Notes: generated by a model from the sequence alone, not told the origin. Counted from the first letter of the stretch, positions 14,390 through 30,699 are shown. The stretch: 40,000 bases of DNA from an uncultured Desulfovibrio sp. (GCA_964576895.1 CAZNXQ010000004.1:1-40000), one strand, 5' to 3'. Program-made: numbers and translations.

Positions 14390-15220
14390 CTATGGATGTT
14401 CATTAATCTTCATGCAGTATTTCAGTACACATTTTTCTGTTGTTCCGCAAATGATATACGATGCCATGTCGTAGCCGTAACAATCCCCTGTTGGCGTTAA
14501 TCCATTTCTGGCAAACTCCGCAAAAAAGGTGTTGGCGAACGCCCGATGGCTTGGGCCATCGCCCTGATGCATTGCCACAAGATAGCGCCCTGCCGGTTTT
14601 CTGTGCAGCATTTCGGCCGGGGTGTCGTTTCCTGCCCGGCTGAAGTACGCGGTTTCACTGTAGTTTCCCTGTGAAAGTCCGTTCCCGTCAATGACCAGTC
14701 CCACGGGAAGTTCAGGATAGCGCTCCTGTTCCGCATAGTGATTCAGGTACGCGGCATACGCCGCTATGTACTCGCCATCGTTGCACGGTGGCGCCTCATT
14801 GGCTGATGGCAGAGCCTCAAGGAGTTCCTCCGGCATTTCTACGATTTCAAACCGGTCGTAGGCGCAGGAGAGCGCATGGGTTATTTGTGCAAGCAGTTCG
14901 CCGATGAAACGTTCACGAAAGGTTAATCGCAACAATTCCCGTCTGAGGGATTCCCTCTTCTCCAGAAGCAGAGCAACCGTCTTTTCTGCATCAGGGCATG
15001 TCTTGTGGCGCTTGATTTCCCCAAGCGAGGCGCCCGCATCTTTCAGCATGGAAATCATGTCGAAATCAAGGAACTGCTCCAGGCCATAACGGCGGTAGCC
15101 ATTGGCGGCGACGTGCCGGGGCTTGAGGAGCCCCAGCTGGTCATAATGGAACAGTGTTGCCTTGGTCGTTTTGCACAGCCTGGCGAACTGGCCGGTGGTG
15201 AACAATCTTTTGGGATCCAT
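14390..15220 (-). CDS. MerR-family transcriptional regulator with C-terminal GyrI-like effector-binding domain (BmrR-like)
   Basis: N-terminal MerR HTH (FTTGQFARLCKTTKATLFHYDQLGLLKP..NGYRRY), a coiled-coil linker, and a C-terminal ~150 aa GyrI-like segment (GRYLVAMHQGDGPSH..). Visibly lower G+C than its neighbours. Confidence 0.85.
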   Translation of the reverse strand: MDPKRLFTTGQFARLCKTTKATLFHYDQLGLLKPRHVAANGYRRYGLEQFLDFDMISMLKDAGASLGEIKRHKTCPDAEKTVALLLEKRESLRRELLRLTFRERFIGELLAQITHALSCAYDRFEIVEMPEELLEALPSANEAPPCNDGEYIAAYAAYLNHYAEQERYPELPVGLVIDGNGLSQGNYSETAYFSRAGNDTPAEMLHRKPAGRYLVAMHQGDGPSHRAFANTFFAEFARNGLTPTGDCYGYDMASYIICGTTEKCVLKYCMKINEHP

Positions 15221-15230
15221 CGGAAAGCTC

Positions 15231-15261
15231 TTGACTCTAAGGTTACCTGATACTTTATGCT
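15231..15261 (+). promoter_or_regulatory. MerR-type promoter (19-bp spacer) for the efflux operon
   Basis: TTGACT (15231-15236), a 19-nt spacer, then TATGCT (15256-15261). The spacer contains the dyad AGGT-T-ACCT (15240-15248). It lies in the 90-bp divergent intergenic region between the MerR gene and the MFP gene. Confidence 0.5.
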
Positions 15262-15310
15262 ATCCCCACTGTATCGATTTTTCAAGCCACGCTGAACAAG
15301 GAGCCGACCC

Positions 15311-16531
15311 GTGCGTTGCCGCAGTCAGGTGTTCCGGACGCGCATAACGAAGTTTCCCGGAGGCGGCATCCTCCTTCTCCTGATGCTTGTCCTGGCTGGG
15401 TGCGGCGGCGGGGAACAGGCGGAAAAGGCCCGTGAGACGCTGGTCTACACAGAGGTGCGGCCTGTGCCCGTGACGCTCACGAGCAGGCTGCCGGGCAGGG
15501 TGTCCGCGCGCGTGGTTTCCGAGGTGCGGCCCCAGGTGAACGGCATCATCCAGAAAAGGCTCTTTGCCGAGGGGACGGATGTGGCGCAGGGGCAGCCGCT
15601 GTATCAGATAGACCCGGCCCTCTACAGGGCGGCGTTGAAGACCGCCCGCGCCCTGCTGGCGGAAACCGAGGCCAGGATAGAGGAGCTCGCGGCCCGGAAG
15701 CGGCGCCGCGAAAACCTGGTCAGGGCCAAGGCCGTGAGCAGGCAGGATCTGGAAACTGCCGTTTCCGAATATGCCCAGGCGCTCGCGCAGCGGGACAAGG
15801 CCAGGGCCGAGGTGGAAACGGCGGCCATCAATCTTGACTATACCACAATCAAGGCCCCGGTGGCGGGCCGCATAGGCCCTTCCCGCGTGACCGAGGGGGC
15901 GCTGGTCACGGCAAATCAGGCGGAGCCGCTGGCAAAAATCCAGCAGACCGGCACGGTCTATGTGGATATCAGCCAGTCCAGCGCCCATATCCTGCGCTTG
16001 CGGCGCGCCTTGGCAAGCGGGGGACGCCGCGGCGGGGAAGCGCCGGTGCATCTCATCCTGGAAGACGGCGCCCCGTACACGAACGCCGACGGAAGCCCCG
16101 TGGCGGGGCGTCTGCTTCTGTCGGACATTTCCGTTGACAGGGAAACCGGCAGCGTGACCCTGCGCGCGCTGTTTCCCAATCCCGATGGGCTGCTCCTGCC
16201 CGGCATGTATGTCTCCGCGCTCGTGGGCGAAGGCGAAAGACCGGCGCTGCTTGTGCCGCAGCGCAGCGTATTTCTGGACAGCGGGGGCGGCCATCAGGTC
16301 TGTGTGCTCAGACGCGATCCGCAAAACGCGGGAGAATTCTTCGTCGAGAAGCGCGACGTGGACATCGAAAGGGCGCATGGCACGCACTGGATCATCAGAA
16401 GCGGGCTGGAACCGGGAGATCTGGTGGTGGTGGAAGGGCTGCAAAAAGCCCGTGCAGGGAACAGGGTGCGCGGCCGCGTGTGGGATGGCGCGCCGCAAGG
16501 CACAGTCTGGCTCAGGGAAGAGGAACGCTAG
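15311..16531 (+). CDS. RND efflux membrane-fusion (periplasmic adaptor) lipoprotein, AcrA/MexA family
   Basis: Lipoprotein signal with lipobox LLMLVLAGC, and adaptor signatures (YQIDPALYRAAL.., LDYTTIKAPVAGRIG). GTG start at 15311; the start is uncertain. Confidence 0.85.
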   Translation: MRCRSQVFRTRITKFPGGGILLLLMLVLAGCGGGEQAEKARETLVYTEVRPVPVTLTSRLPGRVSARVVSEVRPQVNGIIQKRLFAEGTDVAQGQPLYQIDPALYRAALKTARALLAETEARIEELAARKRRRENLVRAKAVSRQDLETAVSEYAQALAQRDKARAEVETAAINLDYTTIKAPVAGRIGPSRVTEGALVTANQAEPLAKIQQTGTVYVDISQSSAHILRLRRALASGGRRGGEAPVHLILEDGAPYTNADGSPVAGRLLLSDISVDRETGSVTLRALFPNPDGLLLPGMYVSALVGEGERPALLVPQRSVFLDSGGGHQVCVLRRDPQNAGEFFVEKRDVDIERAHGTHWIIRSGLEPGDLVVVEGLQKARAGNRVRGRVWDGAPQGTVWLREEER

Positions 16532-16680
16532 ACGCCAACCCGTTTCACGGGAAAGGCCGCCTCCGTCAGTGAAGGCGCGCGACGCGGGGGAAGAGCGTCG
16601 GGGAGGCGCCGGAAGCCATATTCTCCACGAGGGGTGTTTTTCCTCCAGCCCTTGGACTGGAGGGGAAATTGAGGTGCTGT

Positions 16681-19600
16681 ATGGCCGAGTTTTTCATCGA
16701 TCGTCCCATTTTCGCCTGGGTCATCGCCATCCTCATCATGCTTGCCGGCGCCATCTGCCTGCGCAGTCTGCCGGTGGCGCAGTATCCGGAGATCGCTCTG
16801 CCCCAGATAGGCATTTACGGAACCTATCCGGGCGCGGCCGCAAAAACCGTTGACCAGAGCGTGGTGCAGGTCATCGAGCAGCAGATGAACGGCATTGACC
16901 ATCTGATCCATATGCGGTCAAGCAGCGATTCCAGCGGCAACATTGAAATGTTCTTCACCTTCGCATCCGGGACGGACAGCGATGCCGCCCAGGTGCAGGT
17001 GCAGAACCGGCTGCAGCAGGCCATGCCCCAGTTGCCGGAAGCCGTGCAGCGCCAGGGTATCCAGGTCTACAAGGCGGTGGAAAACTCGTTCATGGTCATC
17101 GCCTTTTATGCGGACGATGCGTCCATAAGCTCGGATACCATCAGCGATTATGTGGCCAGCAATGTGCGCGAAGCCCTGGGCCGCGTGCAGGGCGTCGGCT
17201 CAACAACGCTGTATGGCGGCCAGAACGCCATGCGGATCTGGCTGGATCCAGAAAAAATGCGTCAGTTTGCGCTCAATCCCCAGGATATTTCCCAGGCGGT
17301 GCGGGAACAGAACGCGCAGGTGACGGGCGGCCAGGTCGGGGGGGCGCCCGCGCCGTCCGGACAGGAAGTGAGCTATACCGTCAATGCGGCCTCCCGGCTG
17401 GAAACGGTGGAGGACTTTGCGAACATTCGTCTGAAAATTCTGGAAAACGGTTCCGTGCTGCGCCTTCGCGATGTGGCCAGGGTCGAGCTGGGCAGCGAAA
17501 ATTTTACGGGAGGCACCTGGTATAACGGCCATCCGGGCGTGGGGCTGGCCATCAAGCTGGCTACCGGGGCCAACGTGATTGAGGCTACGAAAAATATCAA
17601 GGCGGAAATGAAGGAGCTTTCCCGGTTTTTTCCTCCCTGGCTCAGATATGCGTACGCCGACGACCGCGCGCCCATCGTCGAGAAATCCATCGCCGCCGTG
17701 CAGCGCACGCTGGTGGAAGCCATCGTGCTGGTGGTCGCCGTCATGTTCGTCTTCCTGCAGAACTTCCGGGCGACGGTCATCCCCACCATCACTGTTCCCG
17801 TGGTGGTGCTGCTGCTGGGGGTCTTTGCCGTGCTTCAGGCGGCGGGTTTTTCCATCAATACCCTGACCATGTTCGGGCTTGTGCTGGCCATCGGTCTGCT
17901 GGTGGACGACGCCATCGTGGTGGTGGAAAATGTGGAGCGCCTGATGCTGGTGGAAAGGCTTTCGCCGAGGGAAGCCGCGGTAAGGTCCATGCGCCAGATC
18001 ACCGGCGCGCTCATCGGCGTGGCGGCCGTCATTTCTGCGGTTTTTGTGCCCATGGCCTTTATGGGCGGCTCCACCGGCGTCATTTATCGCCAGTTTTCCC
18101 TGACCATCGTCAGCGCCATGCTGCTTTCGGTCATCGTGGCCATTGTGCTGACTCCGGCCCTGTGCGCCACCATGCTCGACGCGCGGGCGCATGCCTGCCG
18201 CAACGGCGTCTTCGGCGCGTTCAACGAACTGCTGGACAGATCCACGCGCAGGTATGTCATCGGAGTCAGGCGGATGTTCAGAGCCAGGAAACGCTGGCTG
18301 GCGGCCTATGCCCTGCTTGTGGCCGTGAGCGGCGCACTTTTTCTGCAACTGCCGTCCGCCTTTCTGCCCGACGAGGATCAGAGGCTGCTGCTGGTGGATG
18401 TGCAGTTGCCGCCGGGCGCCACTTTCGAGCGCACCGAGCGGATCCTTGCGGAAATCGACGCCTGGTTTCGCACAGAGGAAAACGATGCCGTAAAAAGCGT
18501 GCTGACCGTTATGGGCTGGGGATTCAGCGGAACAGGACAAAACTCCGCCATGGTCATCCCCATGCTCAGGGACTGGAGCGAACGCGGAAGCAGCCAGAGC
18601 GCCTTTGCCGTCAGGGAGCGTGCGGCCGAGCGTTTGAGCGCCATACCCGGCGCGGAGATCTTCGTGCTCACGCCGCCGGCCGTGCTTGAGCTTGGCAATT
18701 CCTCAGGGTTTGAGCTGGAACTCATGGACAGGGGAAATCTTGGTCATGCAGCCTTGCTGGCGGCCAGGGAGCAACTGCTGGCCGGGGCGTCCCGGCGCCC
18801 GGAAATCGCCTCCGCCAGATACAGCGGCATGGAGGATTCGGAACAGTACGAGCTCGCCATCGACACGGACAAGGCCGGCGCCTTTCATTTAAGCAAGGGC
18901 GACATCAACGGGGCGATTTCCGGCTACTGGGGCAGCGAGTACATCAATGATTTTTCGGACAAGGGCAGGACGAAAAAGGTCTTCATGCAGGCGGCGCCGG
19001 AATTTCGCACGAACATACAGGATTTTGAGCGGTACTATCTGCGGAATGGCAGAGGAGAAATGGTGCCGTTCCGGAATTTCCTCACGGCCCGTTCCCTCAT
19101 GGCCTCGCCCAAGCTGACCCGTTTTCAGGGGCTGCCTTCCCTGAAAATAGAAGGCGAGGCCGCGCCGGGAAAAAGCTCAGGGCAGGCCATGGACGCCATG
19201 GCCCAGGCGGCCGGAGAACTGCCGGAAGGATTCGGCTTCGCCTGGACAGGCCTTTCCTGGCAGGAGATGACGAGCGGGCAGCAGGCGCCGTTCCTCTATC
19301 TGCTGTCGCTGCTCGCCATCTTTCTCTGCCTGGCGGCCCTGTATGAAAGCTGGAGCGTGCCGCTGGCGGTGCTGCTGACGGCCCCCACGGGGATCATCGG
19401 GGCCGTTGCCGGGATGTATCTTCGCGGCATGAACAACGATATATATTTTCAGATCGCCATCCTGACCATTATCGGGCTTTCGGCAAAGAATGCGATCCTG
19501 ATCGTGGAGTTCGCCAGACAACTGCATAAAGGCGGCGAAGATCTTATCCGGGCCACGGCGGAAGCCTGCAGGCTTCGCTTGCGGCCCATCCTGATGACGT

Positions 19601-19824
19601 CATTGTGCTTCATCCTGGGGGTCGTTCCCCTGGCCGCAAGCTCAGGAGCCGGCTCCGGAGCGCAGAATGCGCTCGGCACGGCCGTCATCGCGGGCATGCT
19701 TACAGCCACGGGGCTGGGGTTGTATTGCACGCCGCTCTTTTTTGTCCTGATAACGGAACTCTTCAGCAGAAAAGGGCACCGGCGGCCGGGGAATGCGGCG
19801 CTGCGGCAGACGGCGCAGGCGTAA
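16681..19824 (+). CDS. RND multidrug efflux transporter, AcrB/MexB (HAE1) family
   Basis: MAEFFIDRPIFAWVIAILIML..LPVAQYPEI N-terminus, 1047 aa, and the typical 12-TM/large-loop layout (..DDAIVVVENVER.., ..AKNAILIVEFA..). ATG at 16681 follows GAGGTG. Confidence 0.92.
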   Translation: MAEFFIDRPIFAWVIAILIMLAGAICLRSLPVAQYPEIALPQIGIYGTYPGAAAKTVDQSVVQVIEQQMNGIDHLIHMRSSSDSSGNIEMFFTFASGTDSDAAQVQVQNRLQQAMPQLPEAVQRQGIQVYKAVENSFMVIAFYADDASISSDTISDYVASNVREALGRVQGVGSTTLYGGQNAMRIWLDPEKMRQFALNPQDISQAVREQNAQVTGGQVGGAPAPSGQEVSYTVNAASRLETVEDFANIRLKILENGSVLRLRDVARVELGSENFTGGTWYNGHPGVGLAIKLATGANVIEATKNIKAEMKELSRFFPPWLRYAYADDRAPIVEKSIAAVQRTLVEAIVLVVAVMFVFLQNFRATVIPTITVPVVVLLLGVFAVLQAAGFSINTLTMFGLVLAIGLLVDDAIVVVENVERLMLVERLSPREAAVRSMRQITGALIGVAAVISAVFVPMAFMGGSTGVIYRQFSLTIVSAMLLSVIVAIVLTPALCATMLDARAHACRNGVFGAFNELLDRSTRRYVIGVRRMFRARKRWLAAYALLVAVSGALFLQLPSAFLPDEDQRLLLVDVQLPPGATFERTERILAEIDAWFRTEENDAVKSVLTVMGWGFSGTGQNSAMVIPMLRDWSERGSSQSAFAVRERAAERLSAIPGAEIFVLTPPAVLELGNSSGFELELMDRGNLGHAALLAAREQLLAGASRRPEIASARYSGMEDSEQYELAIDTDKAGAFHLSKGDINGAISGYWGSEYINDFSDKGRTKKVFMQAAPEFRTNIQDFERYYLRNGRGEMVPFRNFLTARSLMASPKLTRFQGLPSLKIEGEAAPGKSSGQAMDAMAQAAGELPEGFGFAWTGLSWQEMTSGQQAPFLYLLSLLAIFLCLAALYESWSVPLAVLLTAPTGIIGAVAGMYLRGMNNDIYFQIAILTIIGLSAKNAILIVEFARQLHKGGEDLIRATAEACRLRLRPILMTSLCFILGVVPLAASSGAGSGAQNALGTAVIAGMLTATGLGLYCTPLFFVLITELFSRKGHRRPGNAALRQTAQA

Positions 19825-22649: not shown

Positions 22650-24035
22650 ATGAAACTGACCGACACATTCATACGGCATGTCGCGGCCAACGGCAAGGTT
22701 CAGAAGCACTCGGACGGCGGGGGGCTGTTCCTCTATGTCACGCCCACGGGCAAAAAGTCATGGCGGTTGGCGTACCGCTTCGCGGGCAGGCAGAAGCTCA
22801 TTTCCCTTGGGCCGTATCCGTCCGTGAGCCTGCGCGAAGCGCGGGAAAAGCGGGAAGACGCCAAAAAGCTGCTGCGGGAGCATATTGACCCCAGCCAGGC
22901 ACGACGGCAGGCCAGAGAAGCGGCGGCGGAAGCGGCCCGCAATTCCTTTGAGGACGTGGCGCGGGAATGGCATGCCAAGTATTCGCCAAAGTGGGTTCCT
23001 TCATACCGGAAAACGGTCATCCGCATCCTGGAGGAAAACCTCTTCCCCTATGTGGGCAAACGTCCCATCAACACCATCACGTCAAGGGAGTTGCTGACCG
23101 TTCTTCGGCGGGTGGAGGAACGGGGCGCGCTGACCATTGCCCACAAGGCGTTGCGTGATACCGGACGGATATTCCGCTATGCCGTTGTTACCGGCAGGGC
23201 GGAACACGACATTGCCGCCGATTTGCGCGGCGCGCTCGCCCCTGCCGCCAACGGCCATCATGCGGCCATTACCGACCCCGCCGGCGTGGGTGAACTGCTG
23301 CGTAACATTTACGCCTATGAGGGAAACTTTTTCATCTCCCGCGCCCTGCGTCTTGCGCCATTGGTGTTCGTCCGGGGCAATGAGCTGATCCGCGCGGAGT
23401 GGGCGGAAATCAATCTTGAGACGGCGGAATGGCGCATTCCGGCGGAACGGATGAAGATGAAGCAGATCCATATGGTGCCGCTCTCGCGGCAGGCCCTGGC
23501 GATTTTCCGGGAACTGCACGAGAAAAGTGGCGAAGGACGTTTTGTCTTTCCGGGCAGCCGTGTGGGAAACGACGACCCCATGTACAGGGGAGGCCCGCTA
23601 CGCGTTCTGCGGCAAATCGGCTGCGCCACCGGCGAACATACCTTTCACGGCTTCCGATCCATGGCGTCCACGCTCCTGAACGAGCTTGGCTATAACTCGG
23701 ACTGGATAGAGCGACAGCTTGCCCACTGCGAACGCAACGGCGTCCGCGCCGCGTACAATTATGCCGAGTATCTGCCGGAACGGCGGCGCATGGTTCAGGA
23801 GTACGCTGACTATCTCGACAGTCTGCGAGTGGCATCTGACAGTGCCGGAGCGGAAAAACAGAGCGACAAGCCGGAAGACGTTTTCAGAGAAATGAACACC
23901 GATGTCGCCATCGGGAAGAGAGACGAGCGCGCCCAAATCACGGAAAAGGACACGGGCTGGAGCGAGGCGTATCGGGAGAAACTGCGGGCCGCCGGGTATG
24001 ACGGCATGGACATTCTGCAAGCTTGGTACGGGTAG
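22650..24035 (+). CDS. int: Tyrosine recombinase, P4/CP4-57-type integrase (N-terminal DUF4102-type arm-binding domain)
   Basis: MKLTDTFIRHV..GGGLFLYVTPTGKKSWRLAYRFAGRQKLISLGPYP is the typical N-terminus. Catalytic region: FHGFRSMAST.., LAHCE.., VRAAYNYAEY. GGAGG lies 7 nt before the ATG. Confidence 0.92.
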   Translation: MKLTDTFIRHVAANGKVQKHSDGGGLFLYVTPTGKKSWRLAYRFAGRQKLISLGPYPSVSLREAREKREDAKKLLREHIDPSQARRQAREAAAEAARNSFEDVAREWHAKYSPKWVPSYRKTVIRILEENLFPYVGKRPINTITSRELLTVLRRVEERGALTIAHKALRDTGRIFRYAVVTGRAEHDIAADLRGALAPAANGHHAAITDPAGVGELLRNIYAYEGNFFISRALRLAPLVFVRGNELIRAEWAEINLETAEWRIPAERMKMKQIHMVPLSRQALAIFRELHEKSGEGRFVFPGSRVGNDDPMYRGGPLRVLRQIGCATGEHTFHGFRSMASTLLNELGYNSDWIERQLAHCERNGVRAAYNYAEYLPERRRMVQEYADYLDSLRVASDSAGAEKQSDKPEDVFREMNTDVAIGKRDERAQITEKDTGWSEAYREKLRAAGYDGMDILQAWYG

Positions 24036-24142: not shown

Positions 24143-24361
24143 CCTCGCCGTCCCCTTTTTCTCTTCGCTGGACACTTCTTCTCCCTCCGCCGCTTCGCTG
24201 AGGAAAGCACATGGTGGCAGGGCTGCAAAGACGGACGTTATCCCAAACCCATAAAGTTGGGGCCACGCACAACCGTCTGGCGGTCAGCGGACATTTCCGC
24301 CCTCGTCAGGGGACTTTCCGGCCAGAACATAACAGGGGAAAATACCGAATCACAGGACTGA
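24143..24361 (+). pseudogene. Degenerate AlpA/excisionase-family (HTH_17-like) remnant
   Basis: This open frame translates to ..ESTWWQGCKDGRYPKPIKLGPRTTVWRSADISALV... It aligns without gaps to the AlpA C-terminal consensus as I recall it (..RSTIYRLMKEGKFPKPVKLG.R.V.W...EI..W). However, there is no ATG/GTG/TTG between the upstream in-frame stop (24140) and the motif, and the N-terminal helix region looks shortened. Confidence 0.4.
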
Positions 24362-25163
24362 AATGCCTTTCCCCTCTGACCGGTTTCCCAAACGCGGCGC
24401 GACCAGGGTATGAACCTTGACCGCGCCGCTTTCTTTTTGCCTCATGCACAATTTTCCGCTATGGTTCCCGAAAAACGGACGAACAAAACAGCCCATTCGC
24501 TTGCCGCAAATGATACGGCTTTTTCCCGAAAACGGGGCGGGTTCTTCGTGGCAGGATGGGGGGTGTGCTACGCACAGCCCCTCATCCTGCCAAAGGCTTC
24601 GCCTCTGGACTCCAAAGAGCGTTCGGCGCTTCGCTTCTCACGCTCGCAAAAAGGCAGGAAAGGCAAAAACGGGAAAGGAATGGGAAGAACTGGAAAGGCG
24701 ACCAAAAAACGCCGTGAAGCGGCCACGGCGAGTCTTGCTTCGCACGGGTTTTCCATATTGAACATTGCCCGGCATTTCCTGAAAGACCAGGAGAAGAAAA
24801 AGAACGGCGTTGCGGGACAGACAAGATCAAGCGAAAACGAGGCATATCTGATTGTTCCCGTGGGGGGCAAGAAGCGAGAGTTCGGCCCCGCCGTATGCTG
24901 TCTACCGGGAAATGGTCAAAAGGCGTTTCCCGAAACAGATGGACGAATCAAGGCTGAAGCGGTCATTGCTCTGTACATGCGCTGTGCCGGATAGACGCCG
25001 CAGGAGATAGCCAACGAAGTATTCAGACACACCCCCGCCCCAAGGGCAAAAACGCAAAACGGATAGACTATGGCCGCAAGGCGCGGCTGGTACACTTGTT
25101 TCCTCCTTATGGCTACCGTGGCTATATGGGCATACCAACCTCAACCATTCGCAGGAGTGATAT

Positions 25164-25919
25164 ATGGCTTCCATTTTCGATGTGTTTGGCAACGGCTCCG
25201 TGGGATCAATATTGAATACATTAGCCAGACAAGCTGGCTCAATGGCCAGCCAGGCTGGTTCTGCAACATCTGATTTTACGCGCAAGGTGCCTGGCGGTGT
25301 GGGTGGTCTTCTTGGCGCGGGCGCTTTGGGCGCATTGCTTGGGAATCTGGCATCAACAGATGTTCTTAAAAATGTCGGCTTGGTCGGCGCAGGTGCGGTT
25401 GCCTGGAACTTTTATAAAAAGTGGGCTGCCAAACAGGAAGGCCAGCAGGCGCAGACAACCAGGGGAGCTACATACGGGGAAAGCTCATGGCCGATCCAAG
25501 CATCAACAGCAGCACCATCTGAAGAAATGGTTGTGATGCAAATTGACCCAACATCCGAGTTGATTATGCGTTGCATGATTTATGCTGCAAAGGCGGACGG
25601 CAACATTGATGCTTCAGAGAAAACTCGCATAAACGCCATTTTAAAAAATATGATGGGCGGAAAAGACGTATCCGCGCTTCTTGCAAAAATGGAAGAAGAA
25701 ACTATTGACCCTTCAAAAATTGTCGCCGCCGCCCTGCCCCAACAGGCTGATGACATCTATCGGCTTTCCTGCTCTGTAATTGACATAGATCATTTTATGG
25801 AGCGTGGTTATCTGGATGCACTGGCTAATGCTCTGCATATTGCGCCCGCTATGCAGCGTGAAATTGAAGAAGAAGCCGGAGCGGCACGCAAGCAACTTGC
25901 CGCTTACATTGAAAGTTAG
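25164..25919 (+). CDS. DUF533 / TerB-like (YebE-family) membrane protein
   Basis: Gly/Ala-rich N-terminal region with a hydrophobic segment (GGLLGAGALGALLGNL..VGLVGAGAVAW), and a C-terminal TerB-like helical domain (..MIYAAKADGNIDASEK..IYRLSCSVIDIDH..ERGYLDALANAL). AGGAG precedes the ATG. Confidence 0.75.
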   Translation: MASIFDVFGNGSVGSILNTLARQAGSMASQAGSATSDFTRKVPGGVGGLLGAGALGALLGNLASTDVLKNVGLVGAGAVAWNFYKKWAAKQEGQQAQTTRGATYGESSWPIQASTAAPSEEMVVMQIDPTSELIMRCMIYAAKADGNIDASEKTRINAILKNMMGGKDVSALLAKMEEETIDPSKIVAAALPQQADDIYRLSCSVIDIDHFMERGYLDALANALHIAPAMQREIEEEAGAARKQLAAYIES

Positions 25920-25927
25920 GAAATCAA

Positions 25928-25973
25928 TGTATTAAACACTCCACAGATTAAATCCTGTGGAGTGTTCAATACA
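25928..25973. terminator. Long hairpin between the convergent DUF533 and Fe-S membrane genes
   Basis: TGTATT-A-AACACTCCACAG, loop attaaatc, CTGTGGAGTGTT-C-AATACA gives 18 paired positions with one mismatch. There is no clear U-run on either side. Confidence 0.45.
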
Positions 25974-26007
25974 TAGTACACAAATCGAGACAAGAGATAC
26001 GGTGAAG

Positions 26008-26604
26008 TCAGGAAGCGTTTATTGAAACCTTGCTTCTCCTGTGGCGAAGCTGACATATCCACTGCGTCATGGTGCCCATAGGGCAGAAGGCGCACCAGGT
26101 TCGCGGCTTGTACAGCGCCATCATGACGAGGCCCAGGAGAAAGGAGGTGAGCATGATGCTGTAAAAACCGAAGCTGAATTGGGCCACCCATTTCGGTACG
26201 GATGTTTCCGTATATGCCCAGTGCCAGGGGAGCTGGAATGTCCAGAACAGGCTGACGGTCTGGCGCAGAGACGTTGCTCCAGCCCCCACCAGCCACGTCT
26301 GAAAGAGCATATTCCCAAAGACCGCCAGGAAGAAAAACAGAAAACCATATCTGAACCAGCGGGAATACAACCACGCAGGCGTCGGTCTGTTGCGTGAATA
26401 CTTCAGCTCATGGCCGAGCTTCATGCACAACTGGCCGCGCCCGCAAAAATGATTGCAGAACAGCTTGTTCCCCCCGAAGATGGCGAAGCCAAGCGGTACA
26501 AGGAAGTCGATCATTCCCAGCCAGGCGAAGAGGATATTGAAGAAGCCCAGGCTGAAATACAGGATCGTCCATATCCACAGATAGTCATACCAATGTCGCT
26601 TCAT
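26008..26604 (-). CDS. Polytopic membrane protein with CxxxC/CxxCP motifs (Fer4_5 / NapH-MauN-like membrane core)
   Basis: There are several hydrophobic helices. Cysteine motifs FCNHFCGRG and WCAFCPMGT fall at loop positions, as in the NapH/MauN/RdhC-type family. An ATGA overlap with the upstream ferredoxin gene is present (26601-26604). Confidence 0.7.
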   Translation of the reverse strand: MKRHWYDYLWIWTILYFSLGFFNILFAWLGMIDFLVPLGFAIFGGNKLFCNHFCGRGQLCMKLGHELKYSRNRPTPAWLYSRWFRYGFLFFFLAVFGNMLFQTWLVGAGATSLRQTVSLFWTFQLPWHWAYTETSVPKWVAQFSFGFYSIMLTSFLLGLVMMALYKPRTWCAFCPMGTMTQWICQLRHRRSKVSINAS

Positions 26605-26813
26605 TGGGCGTCCCGCCTTTGCCTTTCCACAAGTTCAATGCAGTTTGCCGGACACAATGCGGCGCACCTCCCGCAGCCGACACAGGCGTCGGCCCTGATT
26701 TCGGCCCAGCAGCCATGCACGACTGTAGCGGCATGGCGCGGGCAAACGCTTTCACAGGTGCCACAGGCGACACAATTTTTTTGATTGACCACGGCATGAC
26801 GTCTGGATGGCAT
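26601..26813 (-). CDS. 2x[4Fe-4S] ferredoxin (70 aa)
   Basis: CVACGTCESVCP and CVGCGRCAALCP motifs. The start overlaps the DUF134 stop (TGATG at 26811-26815). Confidence 0.8.
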   Translation of the reverse strand: MPSRRHAVVNQKNCVACGTCESVCPRHAATVVHGCWAEIRADACVGCGRCAALCPANCIELVERQRRDAQ

Positions 26814-27193
26814 CAGTATTCTCCCCTGGTTGCCGGGCTATTTTCCGGAGATTGGCGCGGGTTCCCGAATCTGCGGCAGCCATGACCACAGTGCGGCCCT
26901 CCTTCGCACAACCGATAGTCGCCCCCCTCAATAATCAGCAGTTTTCCATTCACAAGCATGTCGGCCAGTTTCTTCCTGGCGCTGGCATAGGTTGCCTGAA
27001 TGCTGGTGCGGACAACATTCATTTTTTCGGCGCATTCCTGCTGCGTCATATCCTCAAGATCTATGAGGCGGATGGACTCGTATTCATCAACAGTCAGGAT
27101 GACAGGCGTTGCTGCTGAACGGAACCCCAGAGGCGCAAATCGCGTATTCTCCGGGAGGCAGCAGACTTTTCTGCATTTTCTGGGTCGTGGCAT
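26813..27193 (-). CDS. DUF134 (UPF0251) predicted DNA-binding protein
   Basis: [19 protein letters not shown].., [57 protein letters not shown] matches the DUF134 pattern. The start is taken at the second Met (27193; AGGA 6 nt upstream); 27199 is possible. Confidence 0.8.
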
Positions 27194-27302
27194 TGGCATT
27201 CCTGCAAAAAGCTAAAATGAAACTTTTTTCATAGGCGTTTCTTGCCGACATGGCATGGGGCATAGGAAAATATCGAATCCCATGATGGGAAAGGACAATG
27301 TC

Positions 27303-27335
27303 AGGGCGGTTTACGATTCTCTCGTAAACCGCCCT
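27303..27335 (-). terminator. Perfect 13-bp hairpin just after the DUF5320 stop
   Basis: AGGGCGGTTTACG, loop attctct, CGTAAACCGCCCT. The downstream sequence on the minus strand is only weakly U-rich, so it could be a terminator or a processing/stability element. Confidence 0.4.
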
Positions 27336-27340
27336 TGAGA

Positions 27341-27568
27341 CTACCGTGAAGAAAGCAGTTCATTTATCCGCGAAAGTTCCCCTTCAAGGGCTTTTTTCCT
27401 TTGGATCAGCCGTTCGGTTCCATCTTCGCGGGAGAATTGTTTTCCATAATTCATGCAGCAAGGCCCCTGGCCGTTTTGAGCGCCGAAGCCCGACTGGGCG
27501 CCCATATGCCGGAACCGTCTGCAATGTTGCCTTGCCCCACGCGCTCCTGCTCCATTTTGTCCTGGCAT
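27341..27568 (-). CDS. DUF5320-family small protein (Gly-rich N-terminus, C-terminal coiled coil)
   Basis: MPGQNGAGARGA..C.. followed by ..LIQRKKALEGELSRINELL resembles the DUF5320 layout that often accompanies DUF134 genes in anaerobes (from memory). AAGGAG lies 6 nt before the ATG at 27568. Confidence 0.65.
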   Translation of the reverse strand: MPGQNGAGARGARQHCRRFRHMGAQSGFGAQNGQGPCCMNYGKQFSREDGTERLIQRKKALEGELSRINELLSSR

Positions 27569-27581
27569 GGCGTACTCCTTT

Positions 27582-27638
27582 GTTATTGACATATGCCGTT
27601 AACTTTTTGTGGCAAACTTTATGACATATGTCAATAAC
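27582..27638. promoter_or_regulatory. 14-bp perfect inverted repeat pair upstream of the DUF5320/DUF134 genes (candidate operator)
   Basis: GTTATTGACATATG (27582-27595) and CATATGTCAATAAC (27625-27638) are separated by 29 nt. The pair starts 14 nt upstream of the DUF5320 ATG, and each half contains a TTGACA-like hexamer. Confidence 0.4.
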
Positions 27639-27644
27639 TATGCG

Positions 27645-27689
27645 ATAAAAATTCAAATGCCTCCCCCGGTATCCGGGAGAGGCATTTTT
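27645..27689 (-). terminator. Bidirectional-looking intrinsic terminator after the multiheme cytochrome gene
   Basis: GCCTCCCCCGG-tat-CCGGGAGAGGC (27659-27683). The minus strand continues ATTTGAATTTTTAT and the plus strand continues ATTTTT. It lies 26 nt after the cytochrome stop. Confidence 0.6.
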
Positions 27690-27708
27690 CTCAATTCAAG
27701 TCAGTGTG

Positions 27709-30180
27709 TTAGCAATCTTTCCTGGCACGACGGCGTCGAATGATCCAGATCAGCACGGGCAACGCCAGCACCGCAGCCACGATACCCAAGACCTTGACCC
27801 AGGCAATGCTGATGTTGTTCTCGCGCAATAAGCCCGCGTGCGCCTGTGGCGACGCGAAATCCAGGTCAAGGACTTCCGCCATTTTGCCCAGCATGGCGAT
27901 GGGAATGGCCCCCTGAGGGATGTCCTGATGGCAGGCAAGGCAGGTGTCACTGCGTTCCAGCGCATTGCGCTGTTCAGGCGTCAACGGCATGGAGTCGGGC
28001 CAGTGCGTATCCACGGTCTGCACCTGTGTTCCATCCGTGCGCAACACCTGCATGAAGTCGCCGTGCAAGCCCCGGATAGCCTGAATCTGGGGCTGGGTGA
28101 AGCGGCTCACGTTGCGACCGTCGGGGGTACGCACGTCTGCATAGCGAACCTTTTCGGGATGCAGGCCATACCGACCGCCATCGATCCCGTAGCCCATAGC
28201 CGCCGCATTGCCGTGGCAGTCCGCGCAGTTGCGGCTTTCACGCGAGGAAGTATGCGGGTTGAGCGGGGCCAACTCCATAGCGTTATAGCCCTTTTCGGTT
28301 TTAGCCACCTTATTCCAGGCAAGGGTCTTGCCGTCCGGACCGATGACCGTGCCCACGGTCTGGATGACGCCCACCAGCGGGGTGACACGCCCTTCGCCGT
28401 TGATGCCCAGCGGCGGGTTTTCCCAGCGTACATGACTGTAGTCCCAGGAAGTCGGCGCGCCGGGCTGATCGCTCATCTGTCCCTTGCGATCCGCCGGGCT
28501 GCCGTCAGGCAGACTCCGCTCCGCCGTCTTCAGCCAGTCTGTGGAACGCTGCCTGTAGTCCAGAGCATACTGATAGCCATAATACTGAGCTGCCCAAGTG
28601 GAGTGGCAGGCATAGCATTCCAGCTTTTCCATATGGCGGCCCACACCAACCATAGCTGTGGTGGCCAGGGCGGGATTGGCCCACTTGTTGGCCTGGCGCA
28701 GCCCCTTGAGGGGAATCAGCTCAAAATCATGACCATTGGCCGAATGCACGATGACCTTGTCCCCCCGGCGCACCACATTGCCAAAGGGATTGCCGCGTGC
28801 GGAAAGCAGGTAGCCATCCTCAGCATCGGAGGTATGGGCAAAGTCCTTTGTGACCTTCATGGCTTCCCGGCTCACACCGCGCGGCTTGTTCCAGTCCACA
28901 GGCTTGCCGAATTCATCGCCATAGCCAAGTGGCAGCTCCCAGGGATACTTGTCTGGCGTTCCATGACAGTCCGCGCATTCCACTTCGATGGTGGCCAGGG
29001 TGGTCGCGCCGATATTGCCATTACCATGCATGGACGTGCTCAGATGACAATCCTGGCACAACAGGCCTGCTTCCGTGCCGTTAACATCCTTGAGAGCGAA
29101 ATGGGCATCCTCACGGATATACTTGAACACATAGCCGCCATTGGCCTTTTGGGGTTCCCCCTGAGCATCAAAGGGACCTCGATGGTCACCATGACCGAAG
29201 GCCATAAGGCCCTGATAGGCGTGGCCGATACGCCTGCCAGCCGCATGGCAGGCCGCGCAGGTATTGACCTGGATTCCCGAGAACGACGCCCCGTTCACCG
29301 TTGTTACGGAATGGCGTGTTCCCTGCATGGCGTGGGTCATCAGATGGCCGGGCTGATCCTTGGGCAGCGCCTTGTCGCCGCCTTCGTAATACCCTTCGTT
29401 GCTGTACAGCGTATGGCAGGCGGCGCAGCCCACACCCCGGAAATGTCCCCTGTCCTGATAGCCCTTGCCGCTCAGATGACAGGCATTGCAGTTGCGCAGA
29501 TAGGTGAACGCGGCCTGTTCCGGCTGTTCGGCCAGCTTCGCCATGTCCACTTCAGGGATCTGTTGCAATTTTTCCGGGAACTGTCCGGGAAAACGCCCGG
29601 CCAGATCCTTCATGTAGGCCCTGTACGCCTCCGTTCCAAGGCGCGGCGTCATACCGTCCGGGTCATCAAGATCGTGGTCGCCGTAAATGTGGTCATGGTT
29701 CCGGGTTCCGATGCCCCAGCTCCAGGTGATGGCCTTCATTTTACCCGCATCCGTGTTCATGTGCGAACGTCTGACCGCATAGACATGATCCGCGTGACAC
29801 TGACCGCAGGTCGCGTCATTGAGTTGCAAAGCGCCGGGTGTGGCTGTGAAGGTCGTCAGCCGACTCCCCGCCGGGGCCAGGCTGTGTGCGATGTCCTTGT
29901 TCTGCACTTCCGCAGGCGTTCCGGCATGGCAGACAACACAGCCGTTGGGGTCGCCCAGCTCCCTGCCTTTAGCGAAAATGGCCTGCATCATGCCGGATTC
30001 CGGCGGGCGGGGCGGCTCAATTCCCTGATGACAGGCAAGACAATACTGATTTTCAGCGGGAAAAATTTTTGCGGCTCCGGTTGTTGCCGCTGTTGCCGCT
30101 CCAGCGGTATCCGCAGAGCCCGGATTCATAGCGAACATCAGGGAGACACATAAAAACAGCAGAGGCAATGGCGATTGCAT
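27709..30180 (-). CDS. Undecaheme c-type cytochrome, periplasmic with C-terminal membrane anchor (823 aa)
   Basis: There are eleven CxxCH motifs, with first Cys at residues 47, 81, 125, 231, 252, 308, 375, 402, 522, 652 and 747. An N-terminal signal peptide (..LFLCVSLMFAMNPGSA) and a C-terminal hydrophobic helix plus a basic stop-transfer (IAWVKVLGIVAAVLALPVLIWIIRRRRARK) are present. A strong AAGGAGG precedes the ATG at 30180. Confidence 0.9.
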   Translation of the reverse strand: MQSPLPLLFLCVSLMFAMNPGSADTAGAATAATTGAAKIFPAENQYCLACHQGIEPPRPPESGMMQAIFAKGRELGDPNGCVVCHAGTPAEVQNKDIAHSLAPAGSRLTTFTATPGALQLNDATCGQCHADHVYAVRRSHMNTDAGKMKAITWSWGIGTRNHDHIYGDHDLDDPDGMTPRLGTEAYRAYMKDLAGRFPGQFPEKLQQIPEVDMAKLAEQPEQAAFTYLRNCNACHLSGKGYQDRGHFRGVGCAACHTLYSNEGYYEGGDKALPKDQPGHLMTHAMQGTRHSVTTVNGASFSGIQVNTCAACHAAGRRIGHAYQGLMAFGHGDHRGPFDAQGEPQKANGGYVFKYIREDAHFALKDVNGTEAGLLCQDCHLSTSMHGNGNIGATTLATIEVECADCHGTPDKYPWELPLGYGDEFGKPVDWNKPRGVSREAMKVTKDFAHTSDAEDGYLLSARGNPFGNVVRRGDKVIVHSANGHDFELIPLKGLRQANKWANPALATTAMVGVGRHMEKLECYACHSTWAAQYYGYQYALDYRQRSTDWLKTAERSLPDGSPADRKGQMSDQPGAPTSWDYSHVRWENPPLGINGEGRVTPLVGVIQTVGTVIGPDGKTLAWNKVAKTEKGYNAMELAPLNPHTSSRESRNCADCHGNAAAMGYGIDGGRYGLHPEKVRYADVRTPDGRNVSRFTQPQIQAIRGLHGDFMQVLRTDGTQVQTVDTHWPDSMPLTPEQRNALERSDTCLACHQDIPQGAIPIAMLGKMAEVLDLDFASPQAHAGLLRENNISIAWVKVLGIVAAVLALPVLIWIIRRRRARKDC

Positions 30181-30250
30181 GAGACCTCCTTATACCACTA
30201 TATCATTATCTGGACTTACTATACCAGCAAAAAAGTGTCCAGAGGAGGTT

Positions 30251-30350
30251 CCATCAACTCAGGGGAATTTTATGGAACTGCATCATAAAAAATATATAAT
30301 TATTCCAACATATTATTTATCAGCGCAATCACTGTGACCATCAACTCAGG
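30251..30350. repeat. 13-bp direct repeat CCATCAACTCAGG x2 (30251-30263, 30338-30350)
   Basis: The two copies are exact and 87 bp apart. They bracket the AT-rich region between the mobC stop and the cytochrome RBS, and the second copy overlaps the mobC stop codon. Confidence 0.7.
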
Positions 30351-30699
30351 ATACATGCCCGACCTTCAGTCCATTTTCCGCTGAAGCACAGGATGCGAAC
30401 TCGGCAATACGCCGCTCGATGCCCGCCAGCGCCGCCAATACCTCCACGGCTTCCGCCGCCCGTTTGCAGGTATTGGCCCATCTCGCAAGCTGATTGATGT
30501 TCGCGCCGATGCGGGCCAGCTCTCGCAGCCACCGTTTCTCTTCCGGCGTTTTTCGCAGGCGGATGCCAAGGCAGGTCGGGCGGACATACTCCGACATACT
30601 CATGCCGTGCAGCCCGGCGTTGAAGCGGAGGATGTCGCGCTCCTCCGGGAACACGCGCACGATGACGGCGGCGGTGCGGACGGGCTTGACGCGCTTCAC
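30346..30699 (-). CDS. mobC: MobC-family relaxosome accessory protein (orphan; no relaxase follows)
   Basis: ..AAVIVRVFPEERDILRFNAGLHGMSMSEYVR.. and the family motif L.ELARIGANINQLARWAN. GTG start at 30699. Confidence 0.75.
   Translation of the reverse strand: MKRVKPVRTAAVIVRVFPEERDILRFNAGLHGMSMSEYVRPTCLGIRLRKTPEEKRWLRELARIGANINQLARWANTCKRAAEAVEVLAALAGIERRIAEFASCASAENGLKVGHVS

Follow-up and report, generated by a model that had tools for sequence, protein, structure and literature searches.

Positions 27,709–30,180 of the window (the whole stretch of DNA that was analysed, 40,000 nucleotides in length) encode an 823-residue c-type cytochrome with eleven haem-binding motifs, which sits on an integrative or mobilisable island. 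Comparison with its homologues places the protein in a very large, strongly conserved and uncharacterised family, spread over many phyla of anaerobes from gut and sediment, and the nesting of its clade among Bacteroidales sequences indicates that the gene was acquired horizontally across phyla. We tentatively favour the view that the cytochrome is a self-contained, periplasm-facing reductase module whose acceptor would be a soluble anion, likeliest a sulfur or selenium species. Multihaem cytochromes define the electron acceptors that anaerobes can use; here, a large family under strong purifying selection lacks a characterised member, and its hosts include prominent human-gut genera otherwise poor in c-type cytochromes.

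Gene and protein organisation

The gene and the segments of its product are as follows.

27709..30180, minus strand: complete gene, stop codon included, for the 823-residue, 11-haem c-type cytochrome (open reading frame, motif count, homologues, dN/dS)
30112..30180, minus strand: predicted Sec signal peptide, residues 1–23 (read from the sequence; AlphaFold helix 5–18)
29791..30069, minus strand: N-terminal three-haem module, residues 38–130, haems 1–3 at C47, C81 and C125 (Cytochrome_C7)
29497..29790, minus strand: haem-free, chiefly helical segment, residues 131–228 (AlphaFold secondary structure)
28951..29496, minus strand: five-haem core, residues 229–410, haems 4–8 (conservation; part of the ExtM-like region 212–665)
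28228..28950, minus strand: beta-rich domain, residues 411–651, haem 9 at C522 (AlphaFold strands 457–488 and 530–639)
27805..28227, minus strand: C-terminal haem region, residues 652–792, haem 10 at C652 and haem 11 at C747 (motifs)
27709..27804, minus strand: C-terminal transmembrane helix (residues ~793–815), tail RRRRARKDC and stop codon (sequence; AlphaFold helix)

Full-length homologues in hundreds, together with dN/dS ratios of 0.08–0.10 (about 0.09) against the three closest homologues, lead us to conclude that the gene is real. A 771-residue open reading frame on the opposite strand (27838..30153) was rejected as a shadow frame. The protein contains eleven CxxCH motifs, at residues 47, 81, 125, 231, 252, 308, 375, 402, 522, 652 and 747; in 20,000 composition-preserving shuffles of the sequence, the mean number was 0.03 and the maximum 2. 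CxxCK and Cx3-4CH motifs are absent, and nowhere else in the 40-kb window does a reading-frame segment 100 residues or longer hold two or more CxxCH. Apart from the motif cysteines, the protein has just two, C11 within the signal peptide and C823 at the very end. The eleven motifs and the signal peptide place the protein among the multihaem c-type cytochromes, and the Pfam models Cytochrome_C7, c3_2 and c554 exceed their cutoffs. The longest intervals between motifs span 106, 120, 130 and 95 residues. A preliminary description of this DNA had reported the motif count, the restriction of cysteine to haem sites, the long haem-free stretches and a periplasm-facing protein with a signal peptide and a single basic-tailed C-terminal helix, and each of these is borne out by the count, by the sequence and by the AlphaFold model. 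That model, made from an alignment of 123 sequences, has a pLDDT of 87.8 (36 close homologues alone gave a pLDDT of 48).

The N-terminus, MQSPLPLLFLCVSLMFAMNPGSA followed by DT, resembles a Sec signal peptide, with cleavage predicted after GSA from reading of the sequence; equivalent signal peptides are present in close homologues. It leads into an Ala/Thr/Gly linker that is disordered in the AlphaFold model (pLDDT <50 at residues 20–35). Pfam Cytochrome_C7 covers residues 43–129 of the three-haem module, where conservation of H99 and M64 reaches 97% or more, as does that of M141, which lies slightly past the module end; in a sister subfamily, the haem 1 motif is CX4-5CH. The haem-free segment that follows has 17 positions at least 97% conserved and carries a conserved acidic loop, D-x-D-D-P-D-G, at 171–176. 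Best conserved of all is the five-haem core, with 49 such positions; its Pfam matches are weak and generic (MtrC/MtrF domain II/IV, c554 and NrfB-like). The beta-rich domain, to which a domain-wise scan assigned no Pfam family, bears the invariant loop RWENPPLGINGEGRV at 585–599.

Haem 11 is membrane-proximal and has H781 as a candidate distal ligand; the two are jointly present in 94% of family members and jointly missing in Campylobacterota. The hydrophobic stretch IAWVKVLGIVAAVLALPVLIWII (~793–815) and the ensuing RRRRARKDC fall within one long helix, 778–822, in the AlphaFold model, and an equivalent hydrophobic tail with Arg/Lys residues is found in most members. According to the positive-inside rule, a positively charged tail marks the cytoplasmic side, so that the bulk of the protein is predicted to be periplasmic.

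The haem ligands were also considered. Conservation across the family identifies 10 non-motif histidines for 11 haems, a census that allows one open haem. M64 and M141 are invariant, however, and each lies 12–13 residues past a proximal His; through them, haems 1 and 3 might have His/Met ligation, leaving no open haem.

Transcription unit and genetic context

The gene is flanked by its own signals, and its island carries two mobility genes.

30181..30345, minus strand: AT-rich upstream region (sequence; alignment with loci L001, L007 and L008)
27655..27687, minus strand: intrinsic-terminator-like hairpin with a 15-bp stem, 9 G-C pairs and a T-rich tail
30346..30699, minus strand: MobC/NikA mobilisation gene, directly upstream of the cytochrome gene (Pfam NikA-like, MobC)
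22650..24035, plus strand: tyrosine integrase of the island (Pfam Arm-DNA-bind_3, Phage_int_M, Phage_integrase)

A ribosome-binding site, AAGGAGG, lies at 30185–30191, four nucleotides upstream of the ATG, and the terminator hairpin begins 22 nucleotides past the stop codon. The upstream region contains a sigma-70-like match at 30340–30312 and a promoter-proximal block, TTTTTTGCTGG(c/t)AT, that is kept in the Desulfovibrio homologues at L001, L007 and L008. We conclude that the gene, with its own promoter region, ribosome-binding site and strong terminator, is monocistronic. Candidate Fur boxes and sigma-54 promoters, sought by eye upstream of the gene, were rejected as half-matches, and no Rfam element was found in this region.

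The G+C content is 0.49–0.61 over ~22–32 kb of the window, compared with 0.67–0.72 in the flanks. The integrase, the mobilisation gene and this deviant composition define an integrative or mobilisable island, in keeping with the preliminary description. Part of its cargo block is repeated at 98.7% identity beside another integrase (L087), and near-identical MobC/NikA proteins occur in Bilophila and gut Desulfovibrio. No relaxase gene follows mobC, and searches for att repeats and for a tRNA target of the island were negative. At the closest loci (L001, L007 and L008), homology is confined to the cytochrome coding sequence.

No neighbouring gene family is conserved around the cytochrome gene across 85 homologous loci, and the anchored form in particular has no conserved partner gene in ~70 loci across phyla. 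The DUF134, ferredoxin and membrane Fe-S genes beside the cytochrome gene, whose constant co-occurrence the preliminary description had put forward as a question, recur among the other loci retrieved only at L087, the copy of the same cargo block; at L026, a DUF134-type gene lies within three genes of the cytochrome homologue. Since a strong terminator also stands between, we rejected a partnership with DUF134, DUF5320 and Fer4_5. The ribosome-binding site and promoter, the terminator, the coding-only homology with the closest loci and the lack of a conserved neighbour together argue for a stand-alone unit.

Associations of a different kind are found in other lineages. At 14 Bacteroidales loci, the cytochrome gene is paired, mostly divergently, with a Porin_O_P anion-porin gene whose product has ~390 residues. 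Genes for soluble members lie either beside TauE/SafE permeases or in operons with a PhsA/Psr-like molybdoenzyme, a TtrB/DsrO-like Fe-S subunit and TorD; these operons specify a Tat-exported enzyme with its Fe-S subunit and have no NrfD/PsrC-type membrane subunit. The occurrence of anchor-less members in multi-gene respiratory clusters fits a partner protein and speaks against a reductase. The Desulfovibrio loci offer no hint of sulfur or selenium chemistry, and the flanks examined at the 85 loci contain no ext-type cluster (ExtKL/MccSep, ExtN, Rieske protein, cytochrome b).

Distribution and conservation of the family

The family is present in at least 554 species genomes and comprises thousands of protein clusters. 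Sequence identity to the 823-residue protein is 87–90% in gut Desulfovibrio, 61–70% in Bacteroidales (for example Parabacteroides, Alistipes and Odoribacter) and 41–50% in Desulfobacterales, Nitrospirota, Chlorobi and Campylobacterota; an exact look-up returned no identical record. Hosts include the gut genera Parabacteroides, Alistipes, Odoribacter and Bacteroides, as well as Desulfovibrio piger, and extend to marine Desulfobacterales and Nitrospirota. We found no description of the family in the literature on multihaem cytochromes of gut Bacteroidales or D. piger. Haems 1–10 are invariant among 81 full-length members, and 148 positions, including the haem-free loops RWENPPLGINGEGRV and DxDDPDG, are at least 97% conserved across phyla.

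In a neighbour-joining tree, the gut Desulfovibrio clade lies within a Bacteroidales-dominated clade, apart from most Desulfobacterota. This nesting points to inter-phylum transfer and agrees with the horizontal acquisition proposed in the preliminary description. The protein is no oddity of the island: it belongs to a very large conserved family, within which haem count and anchor topology both vary. Members from Campylobacterota carry 10 haems and lack the anchor, those from Desulfobacterales carry 12 haems, and several members from Nitrospirota and Desulfobacterota are soluble.

Relationship to ExtM and other multihaem proteins

The only significant named relatives of the cytochrome are ExtM and ExtN. 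The ExtM model (NCBIfam NF040943) aligns with residues 212–665, which hold haems 4–10 together with the beta-rich domain, at an E value of 1.6e-47, and residues 512–660 are shared with the ExtN and ExtO models. The score over residues 212–665 is 162.2 bits, against the 800-bit equivalog cutoff, and none of ten ExtM-like representatives reached the cutoff when scanned against the same model. Both ExtM and the cytochrome are periplasmic multihaem proteins, but the match extends neither to the three haems of the N-terminal module nor to haem 11 and the anchor at the C-terminus. ExtM (GSU2935) has 12 haems rather than 11, and its gene lies in the 11-gene extHIJKLMNOPQS cluster of Geobacter sulfurreducens with a bc-like complex and the polysulfide reductase MccSep, whereas the cytochrome gene is monocistronic. 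MccSep (ExtKL) is a periplasmic polysulfide/selenite reductase (bioRxiv 10.1101/2025.11.18.688581), and the cluster includes a Porin_O_P-type porin, ExtI (PMC5877670), a family found also beside the Bacteroidales cytochrome genes (the c1 family at those loci). ExtM has no demonstrated function, and its position makes a role as electron carrier more probable than one as enzyme.

Searches of Pfam, NCBIfam and the PDB (sequence and profile) and with Foldseek revealed no match to a characterised Desulfovibrio complex, as the preliminary description had anticipated, nor, beyond a marginal likeness to NrfA, to a solved multihaem enzyme. Foldseek comparison of the AlphaFold model with the PDB gave noise only, and phmmer and profile searches of the PDB gave marginal NrfA matches only.

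NrfA (Wolinella and Sulfurospirillum; PDB 1FS7 and 1QDB) is the sole solved protein found by the family profile, at a marginal E value of 0.002. The match is colinear and pairs haems 2, 3 and 5 of the cytochrome with NrfA haems 2, 3 and 4, with CGQCHADHVY aligned to CAQCHVEYYF and RGVGCAACHTLYSNEG to KGVSCADCHMPYTQEG. An hhalign comparison, in which the NrfA side came from short NrfA fragments, gave an E value of 6e-4 but a probability of just 28%, and the NrfA family PF02335 is unreported in the cytochrome even at E ≤10. The CxxCK active-site haem of NrfA is absent from the cytochrome and from all 81 family members, haem 1 being CxxCH. In the hhalign alignment, the catalytic Tyr that NrfA carries past its haem 3 is placed opposite H132/V133, which is variable in the family, and the QHPEYE segment of NrfA becomes EQPEQA, without the His; the Lys, Tyr and His active-site residues are thus unconserved. 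Unlike the pentahaem NrfA, the cytochrome carries 11 haems along with a beta-rich domain and a membrane anchor.

MtrC, OmcA and UndA share with the cytochrome the alternation of a beta-rich domain with haem domains, UndA has the same haem count of 11, and PF22113 (MtrC/MtrF domain II/IV) matches weakly, with a whole-protein score of 45.7 bits against a 30-bit cutoff, spread over three stretches of which the best scores 23.2 bits. PDB searches and Foldseek detected no sequence or fold match to these proteins. They are of the outer-membrane lipoprotein type, whereas the cytochrome has an inner-membrane C-terminal helix and no lipobox (LFLC at 8–11 is unfit, and C11 is conserved in only 9%).

NrfH, CymA and NapC provide a precedent for a multihaem quinol dehydrogenase anchored by a single helix. 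The NapC/NirT/NrfH/CymA proteins, like the cytochrome, are multihaem proteins of the periplasmic face with one transmembrane helix and a membrane-adjacent haem, a functional analogy for electron entry; they differ in being tetrahaem proteins of ~20 kDa with an N-terminal anchor. The NapC/NrfH model TIGR03153 gives an E value of 1e-6 (28.7 bits against a cutoff of 134), and NapC/NirT PF03264 gives 0.08–0.4 in the cytochrome, with weak precomputed matches in some homologues. Gram-positive Fe(III) reducers carry the surface cytochromes OcwA (nonahaem) and OmhA (undecahaem), which belong to the NrfA/c554 homologous group (PMC9250108). Both resemble the cytochrome as large multihaem proteins with electron-transfer and catalytic-type haems, 11 of them in OmhA, but they lie in the S-layer or at the cell surface without a transmembrane anchor, and we detected no sequence similarity even at E ≤10. 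OccP of 'Ca. Dechloromonas occultata', considered by description only, is a 922-residue undecahaem protein encoded in a 19-gene cluster (bioRxiv 10.1101/695007).

Proposed function and alternatives

On the reductase reading, Sec would export the cytochrome, the host cytochrome c maturation system would attach the 11 c-type haems and, once the signal peptide was cleaved, the single C-terminal helix would keep the protein on the inner membrane. Electrons would enter at the membrane-proximal end, at haem 11 beside the anchor, from menaquinol or, in Desulfovibrio, from a soluble cytochrome of the periplasm, for instance type I c3. We infer that they would then pass by way of the conserved five-haem core and the beta-rich domain to the N-terminal three-haem module, which would reduce a small soluble periplasmic acceptor, with inorganic sulfur or selenium species (polysulfide, tetrathionate, thiosulfate, sulfite or selenite) as the likeliest candidates. 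Having no need of dedicated partner genes, such a unit could travel as a one-gene cassette for respiration or detoxification. The invariance of haems 1–10, the 148 conserved positions and the low dN/dS are typical of selection on an enzyme-like protein, and the histidine census leaves room for one special haem. A soluble anion, and sulfur or selenium in particular, is suggested by the Porin_O_P pairing at the 14 Bacteroidales loci, by the ext-cluster relatives and by the neighbours of soluble members; the sulfur/selenium assignment is thus drawn entirely from gene neighbourhoods in other lineages. No catalytic site was identified in the cytochrome. A stand-alone reductase would represent an unrecognised respiratory or detoxifying reaction in the sulfur, selenium or nitrogen cycling of gut and sediment, and would demonstrate that mobile elements can transfer such a capacity in one gene. 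A more far-reaching version, which we consider unlikely, is that a full respiratory branch resides in one polypeptide: the anchored haem would oxidise menaquinol directly, the N-terminal module would use a novel type of multihaem active site to reduce an (oxy)anion of sulfur or selenium, and the whole, independent of partner genes, would travel as a one-gene mobile respiratory cassette among gut anaerobes of different phyla, with Bacteroidales to Desulfovibrio as one example.

Possible methionine ligation by M64 and M141, the marginal likeness to NrfA, the null Foldseek result and the probable carrier role of ExtM run against a reductase. A realistic, if doubtful, alternative is that the cytochrome acts as a membrane-tethered periplasmic haem wire, an electron-transfer hub that would draw on menaquinol or on a membrane complex and hand the electrons to other periplasmic reductases or carriers, in the manner of CymA, ImcH, CbcL and, presumably, ExtM. 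ExtM and ExtN, the sole significant named relatives, are encoded beside a bc-like complex and MccSep (PMC5877670; bioRxiv 10.1101/2025.11.18.688581). The family matches are all to generic electron-transfer proteins (c7, c3, NrfB-like and MtrC domain II/IV), the two methionines can complete the ligand census so that all haems are six-coordinate, and the molybdoenzyme operons of the soluble variants, having no NrfD/PsrC-type subunit, would need a cytochrome donor. Set against this, the anchored form moves as a single gene with no conserved partner in ~70 loci, whereas a contact-dependent hub should transfer poorly between phyla; its haem-free domains and loops are conserved beyond the usual needs of simple electron transfer, and the anion-porin pairing in Bacteroidales suggests a small-molecule substrate. 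Even as a hub only, the cytochrome would be a useful marker of a so far unstudied pathway of periplasmic electron transfer with a relationship to Geobacter ExtM/ExtN.

The remaining explanations carry much less weight. That the protein diverged within the NrfA/ONR/OTR/HAO superfamily and reduces nitrite, hydroxylamine or NO at haem 1 seems improbable to us: the colinear NrfA match over haems 2, 3 and 5 is the only PDB match of the family profile (hhalign E 6e-4), and the family is found in many nitrite-to-ammonium reducers of the Bacteroidales and Campylobacterota, but the hhalign probability is 28%, PF02335 is unmatched, haem 1 is CxxCH rather than CxxCK, the catalytic Tyr and His positions are unconserved, and OcwA and OmhA go undetected. 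There is slightly less to be said for a component of an extracellular porin–cytochrome conduit, analogous to MtrC, OmcA or UndA and serving insoluble or extracellular acceptors. The PF22113 score above cutoff, the beta-rich domain between haem domains, the haem count of UndA and the porin gene adjoining in Bacteroidales accord with such a role; that score, however, adds together three generic stretches that each stay below the threshold, MtrC, OmcA and UndA were not matched in PDB sequences or by Foldseek, and the C-terminal helix and positive cytoplasmic tail, without a lipobox, point to the inner membrane. Porin_O_P-type anion channels, such as the adjoining ~390-residue porin, are too small to sheathe a cytochrome. 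Finally, it is extremely improbable that the gene is decaying or non-functional island cargo, as the mosaic nature of the mobile element and the adjoining mobC without a relaxase might suggest: the reading frame is intact, all 11 motifs are kept, dN/dS is 0.08–0.10, and the ribosome-binding site and terminator are strong. The reading frame also exceeds 700 residues at 81 of the 85 homologous loci; among the other four, only that at L084 is clearly split into two reading frames.

Sequence and membrane topology of the cytochrome

The cytochrome gene occupies a single reading frame of the window:

27709..30180, minus strand: cytochrome ORF, 823 residues

Its ATG start codon lies 4 nt 3' of an AAGGAGG ribosome-binding site. 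The protein contains exactly 11 CxxCH motifs, at residues 47, 81, 125, 231, 252, 308, 375, 402, 522, 652 and 747, and neither a CxxCK nor a longer-spaced haem motif is present in it; its only non-motif cysteines are C11 and the terminal C823. Over 20,000 shuffles of the same residues the motif occurred 0.03 times on average and at most twice, compared with the 11 observed, and among the window's other reading-frame segments of 100 aa or longer, none contains two or more. The chain has haem-free gaps of 106, 120, 130 and 95 residues. The N-terminus is plausibly a Sec signal peptide, after which comes a disordered Ala/Thr/Gly linker; at the C-terminus a hydrophobic helix is followed by RRRRARKDC. 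The established positive-inside rule places the haem domain in the periplasm and the tail in the cytoplasm. The preliminary description had reported 11 haem motifs with this cysteine inventory, long haem-free stretches, and an N-terminal signal with a C-terminal helix and RRRRARK; the gaps are real, and the observation was correct in every detail. A 771-aa ORF antisense to the cytochrome gene (27838-30153, plus strand), which has no CxxCH motif, was dismissed as a shadow ORF and not a gene; ORFs of this kind are typical in GC-rich DNA.

A widespread and strongly conserved family

A search over 5.8 billion proteins produced over 1,600 matches, the best 120 of which share 60-89% identity with the query and, in all but one case, span at least 91% of it. 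A profile of divergent members matched 2,689 clusters at E <= 1e-20, a 50%-identity representative library gave 192 clusters at E <= 1e-30, and a scan of GTDB species yielded at least 554 confirmed loci. The window cytochrome is not unique to its island; it belongs to a widespread family. Among the matches, the closest are from Desulfovibrio piger and gut Desulfovibrio MAGs (87-90% identity to the window protein), followed by those of Desulforegulaceae (70-71%) and many from Bacteroidales (61-70%), among them Parabacteroides gordonii, leei and hominis, Alistipes, Odoribacter, Bacteroides and Prevotella. The family also occurs in Anaerobiospirillum, Propionivibrio, Acidobacteria and Ignavibacteria, and a second clade (41-50%) comprises members from Desulfobacterales, Nitrospirota, Chlorobi, Kiritimatiellia and Campylobacter/Wolinella/Helicobacter. 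A neighbour-joining tree places the window protein with gut Desulfovibrio and Desulforegulaceae inside a Bacteroidales-dominated clade, away from most Desulfobacterota, and this nesting supports inter-phylum transfer. All members are named 'hypothetical protein', 'cytochrome C' or 'multiheme c-type cytochrome' in their sources. The earlier reading of the gene as uncharacterised and horizontally acquired is supported. Multihaem families that lack characterisation are common; what sets this one apart is that it is large and strongly conserved, occurs in abundant gut genera and moves as a one-gene unit.

Haems 1-10 are present in every one of 81 full-length members, and 94% of these have haem 11 together with H781. 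Conservation reaches at least 97% at 148 positions, which include motifs in the haem-free regions:

residues 171-176: DxDDPDG
residues 461-470: ARGNPxGNVV
residues 585-599: RWENPPLGINGEGRV

Comparison with the three closest genes gave dN/dS values of 0.08-0.10, and it is extremely improbable that the cytochrome is non-functional cargo of the island. The architecture varies at its margins. Campylobacterota members have 10 haems and no anchor, and several from Nitrospirota and Desulfobacterota retain haem 11 while the transmembrane helix is absent. In a sister subfamily from Desulfobacterales and Nitrospirota (P0345, P0347, P0348 and P0364; alignment A2), haem 1 has a non-canonical CX4CH or CX5CH motif and an extra CYGCH directly past haem 9 brings the number of haem sites to 12. 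In one Desulfobacterales MAG (locus L084) the homologue is broken into a 228-aa and a 553-aa ORF, through either a frameshift that made it a pseudogene or a fault in the assembly.

Relationship to known cytochromes

Pfam returned only generic multihaem families for the cytochrome, namely c7 (residues 43-129), c3_2, c554 and MtrC/MtrF domain II/IV, and no family for the beta-rich region 415-650. Searched domain by domain, the protein has no MtrC-type stretch above 23 bits, and a role as an outer-membrane conduit is very improbable. PDB sequence searches found NrfA only, and marginally (E 0.002), with colinearity at haems 2, 3 and 5; profile-profile comparison with an NrfA fragment alignment gave a probability of 28%. 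The same comparison shows that neither the Lys-ligated haem of NrfA nor its catalytic Tyr or His is conserved in the family, and we consider an NrfA-type nitrite reductase very improbable.

The sole informative NCBIfam match is to ExtM, a model of a Geobacter ext-cluster cytochrome, at E 1.6e-47 over residues 212-665; it scores 162 bits, where the cutoff is 800. The ExtN and ExtO models match as well, over residues 512-660. Ten further ExtM-like representatives, each about 600 aa long, all fall far below the ExtM cutoff too, which indicates that ExtM marks a broad superfamily with the cytochrome family as one branch. The family is best described as a variant within multihaem cytochrome c, in an ExtM-like superfamily. 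ExtM itself (GSU2935) is a predicted 12-haem periplasmic cytochrome to which no function has been assigned, and its gene lies directly downstream of ExtKL (PMC5877670). ExtKL was later shown to be MccSep, which reduces polysulfide (and selenite) in the periplasm and without which sulfur respiration fails (bioRxiv 10.1101/2025.11.18.688581).

The mobile island and the transcription unit

Over roughly 22-32 kb of the window the GC content drops from about 0.67-0.72 to 0.49-0.61. This low-GC segment carries, besides the cytochrome gene:

22650-24035: tyrosine integrase
low-GC segment: DUF533/TerB-like gene
26008-27592, minus strand: membrane Fer4_5, DUF134 and DUF5320 gene set, 3' of the cytochrome terminator
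30346-30699: MobC/NikA mobilisation gene, with no relaxase gene after it

We found no tRNA and no convincing att repeat for the island. Close relatives of the integrase, MobC and Fer4_5 proteins (90%-identity clusters) occur in uncultured gut Desulfovibrio, and in the case of MobC also in Bilophila. A Logan contig, L087 (1-4516), matches window 24204-28713 at 98.7% identity, a block that begins in the 3' portion of the cytochrome gene and takes in DUF5320, DUF134, Fer4_5 and DUF533; because on that contig it adjoins a different integrase (400 aa) and an AlpA-like gene, the cargo appears to be exchanged among different integrative elements. The three closest homologous loci have only the coding sequence in common with the window, at about 84% nucleotide identity.

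A hairpin with a 15-bp stem and a T-rich tail begins 22 nt past the cytochrome stop codon, and the AT-rich region 5' of the gene contains one block conserved with Desulfovibrio homologues. The gene is therefore monocistronic and set off from the DUF5320, DUF134 and Fe-S genes. The suggested link between the cytochrome and its DUF134/Fe-S neighbours is refuted by the terminator between them and by the lack of linkage in other genomes, the one exception being L026, a Bacteroidales locus where a DUF134-type gene is found three genes from the cytochrome. A second long terminator-like hairpin (25928-25973, minus strand) has a 20-bp stem and separates the DUF533 gene from Fer4_5, with which it converges.

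The sequence CCTGAGTTGATGG forms a 13-nt direct repeat on the minus strand, with copies at 30340-30352 and 30256-30268, 84 nt apart. The first copy spans the mobC/nikA stop codon, and the two flank an AT-rich stretch immediately 5' of the cytochrome promoter region. A mobC gene ordinarily precedes a relaxase gene, and the repeat may be a junction scar left where the cytochrome cassette displaced one. Elsewhere in the window, a block encoding a MerR regulator, an HlyD-type adaptor and an AcrB-type RND efflux pump (14390-19824) has a GC content of 0.57-0.63, compared with about 0.67-0.70 around it, and may be a second acquired segment.

Neighbours of the gene in other genomes

Clustering of the proteins from all ORF calls at 85 loci revealed no partner gene conserved family-wide, and the Desulfovibrio loci, the window included, have no functional neighbour. 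At 14 Bacteroidales loci (including L009, L011, L013, L014, L027-L033, L036 and L040) a homologue of the Porin_O_P (OprO/OprP-family) outer-membrane anion porins lies upstream, usually divergently; the Geobacter ext cluster also encodes a member of this Pfam family, ExtI. Six Parabacteroides loci have another signal-peptide protein, of about 380 aa, as the upstream neighbour. A fused ResB/CcsB-CcsA (CcsBA) system II cytochrome c synthase/haem lyase of about 800 aa adjoins the cytochrome at nine Bacteroidales loci, downstream in L009, L010, L013, L021, L024, L038 and L072 and upstream in L032 and L036, which suggests a dedicated maturation gene.

The anchor-less genes of Nitrospirota and Desulfobulbaceae (L045, L049, L071 and L052) are last in an operon encoding a 508-aa 11-haem cytochrome, a TtrB/DsrO-like Fe-S protein, a PhsA/DmsA-like Tat molybdoenzyme and a TorD chaperone; the DNA fetched for these four loci showed no membrane subunit of the NrfD/PsrC type. 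Those of Desulfobacteraceae follow FmdE, molybdenum-cofactor genes and a TauE/SafE permease and precede a CBS-GAF histidine kinase, with cytochrome b561 and further cytochromes upstream.

Possible role of the cytochrome

We tentatively favour the reading that the cytochrome is a self-contained periplasmic reductase module, because it moves as a single gene across phyla, has no conserved partners, shows enzyme-like conservation in its haem-free regions and possesses ten conserved non-motif histidines for eleven haems. Electrons would enter at the membrane end, where haem 11 and H781 immediately precede the transmembrane helix, travel from haem to haem and, at the N-terminal module, be handed to a small soluble acceptor. 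The arrangement of the membrane-side haem is analogous to that in the single-helix quinol dehydrogenases NrfH and CymA, to which there is no homology. The main rival, doubtful yet substantial, is that the protein is a hub distributing electrons. The relationship to ExtM and the molybdoenzyme operons devoid of a membrane subunit point that way, as do the invariant M64 and M141, each 12-13 residues past a proximal histidine, which could make haems 1 and 3 six-coordinate.

For a reductase module, the acceptor is most likely a sulfur or selenium species, on circumstantial grounds drawn from other lineages: the pairing with Porin_O_P, the parallel with ExtM, ExtI and MccSep, and the Psr/Phs-like and TauE neighbours.
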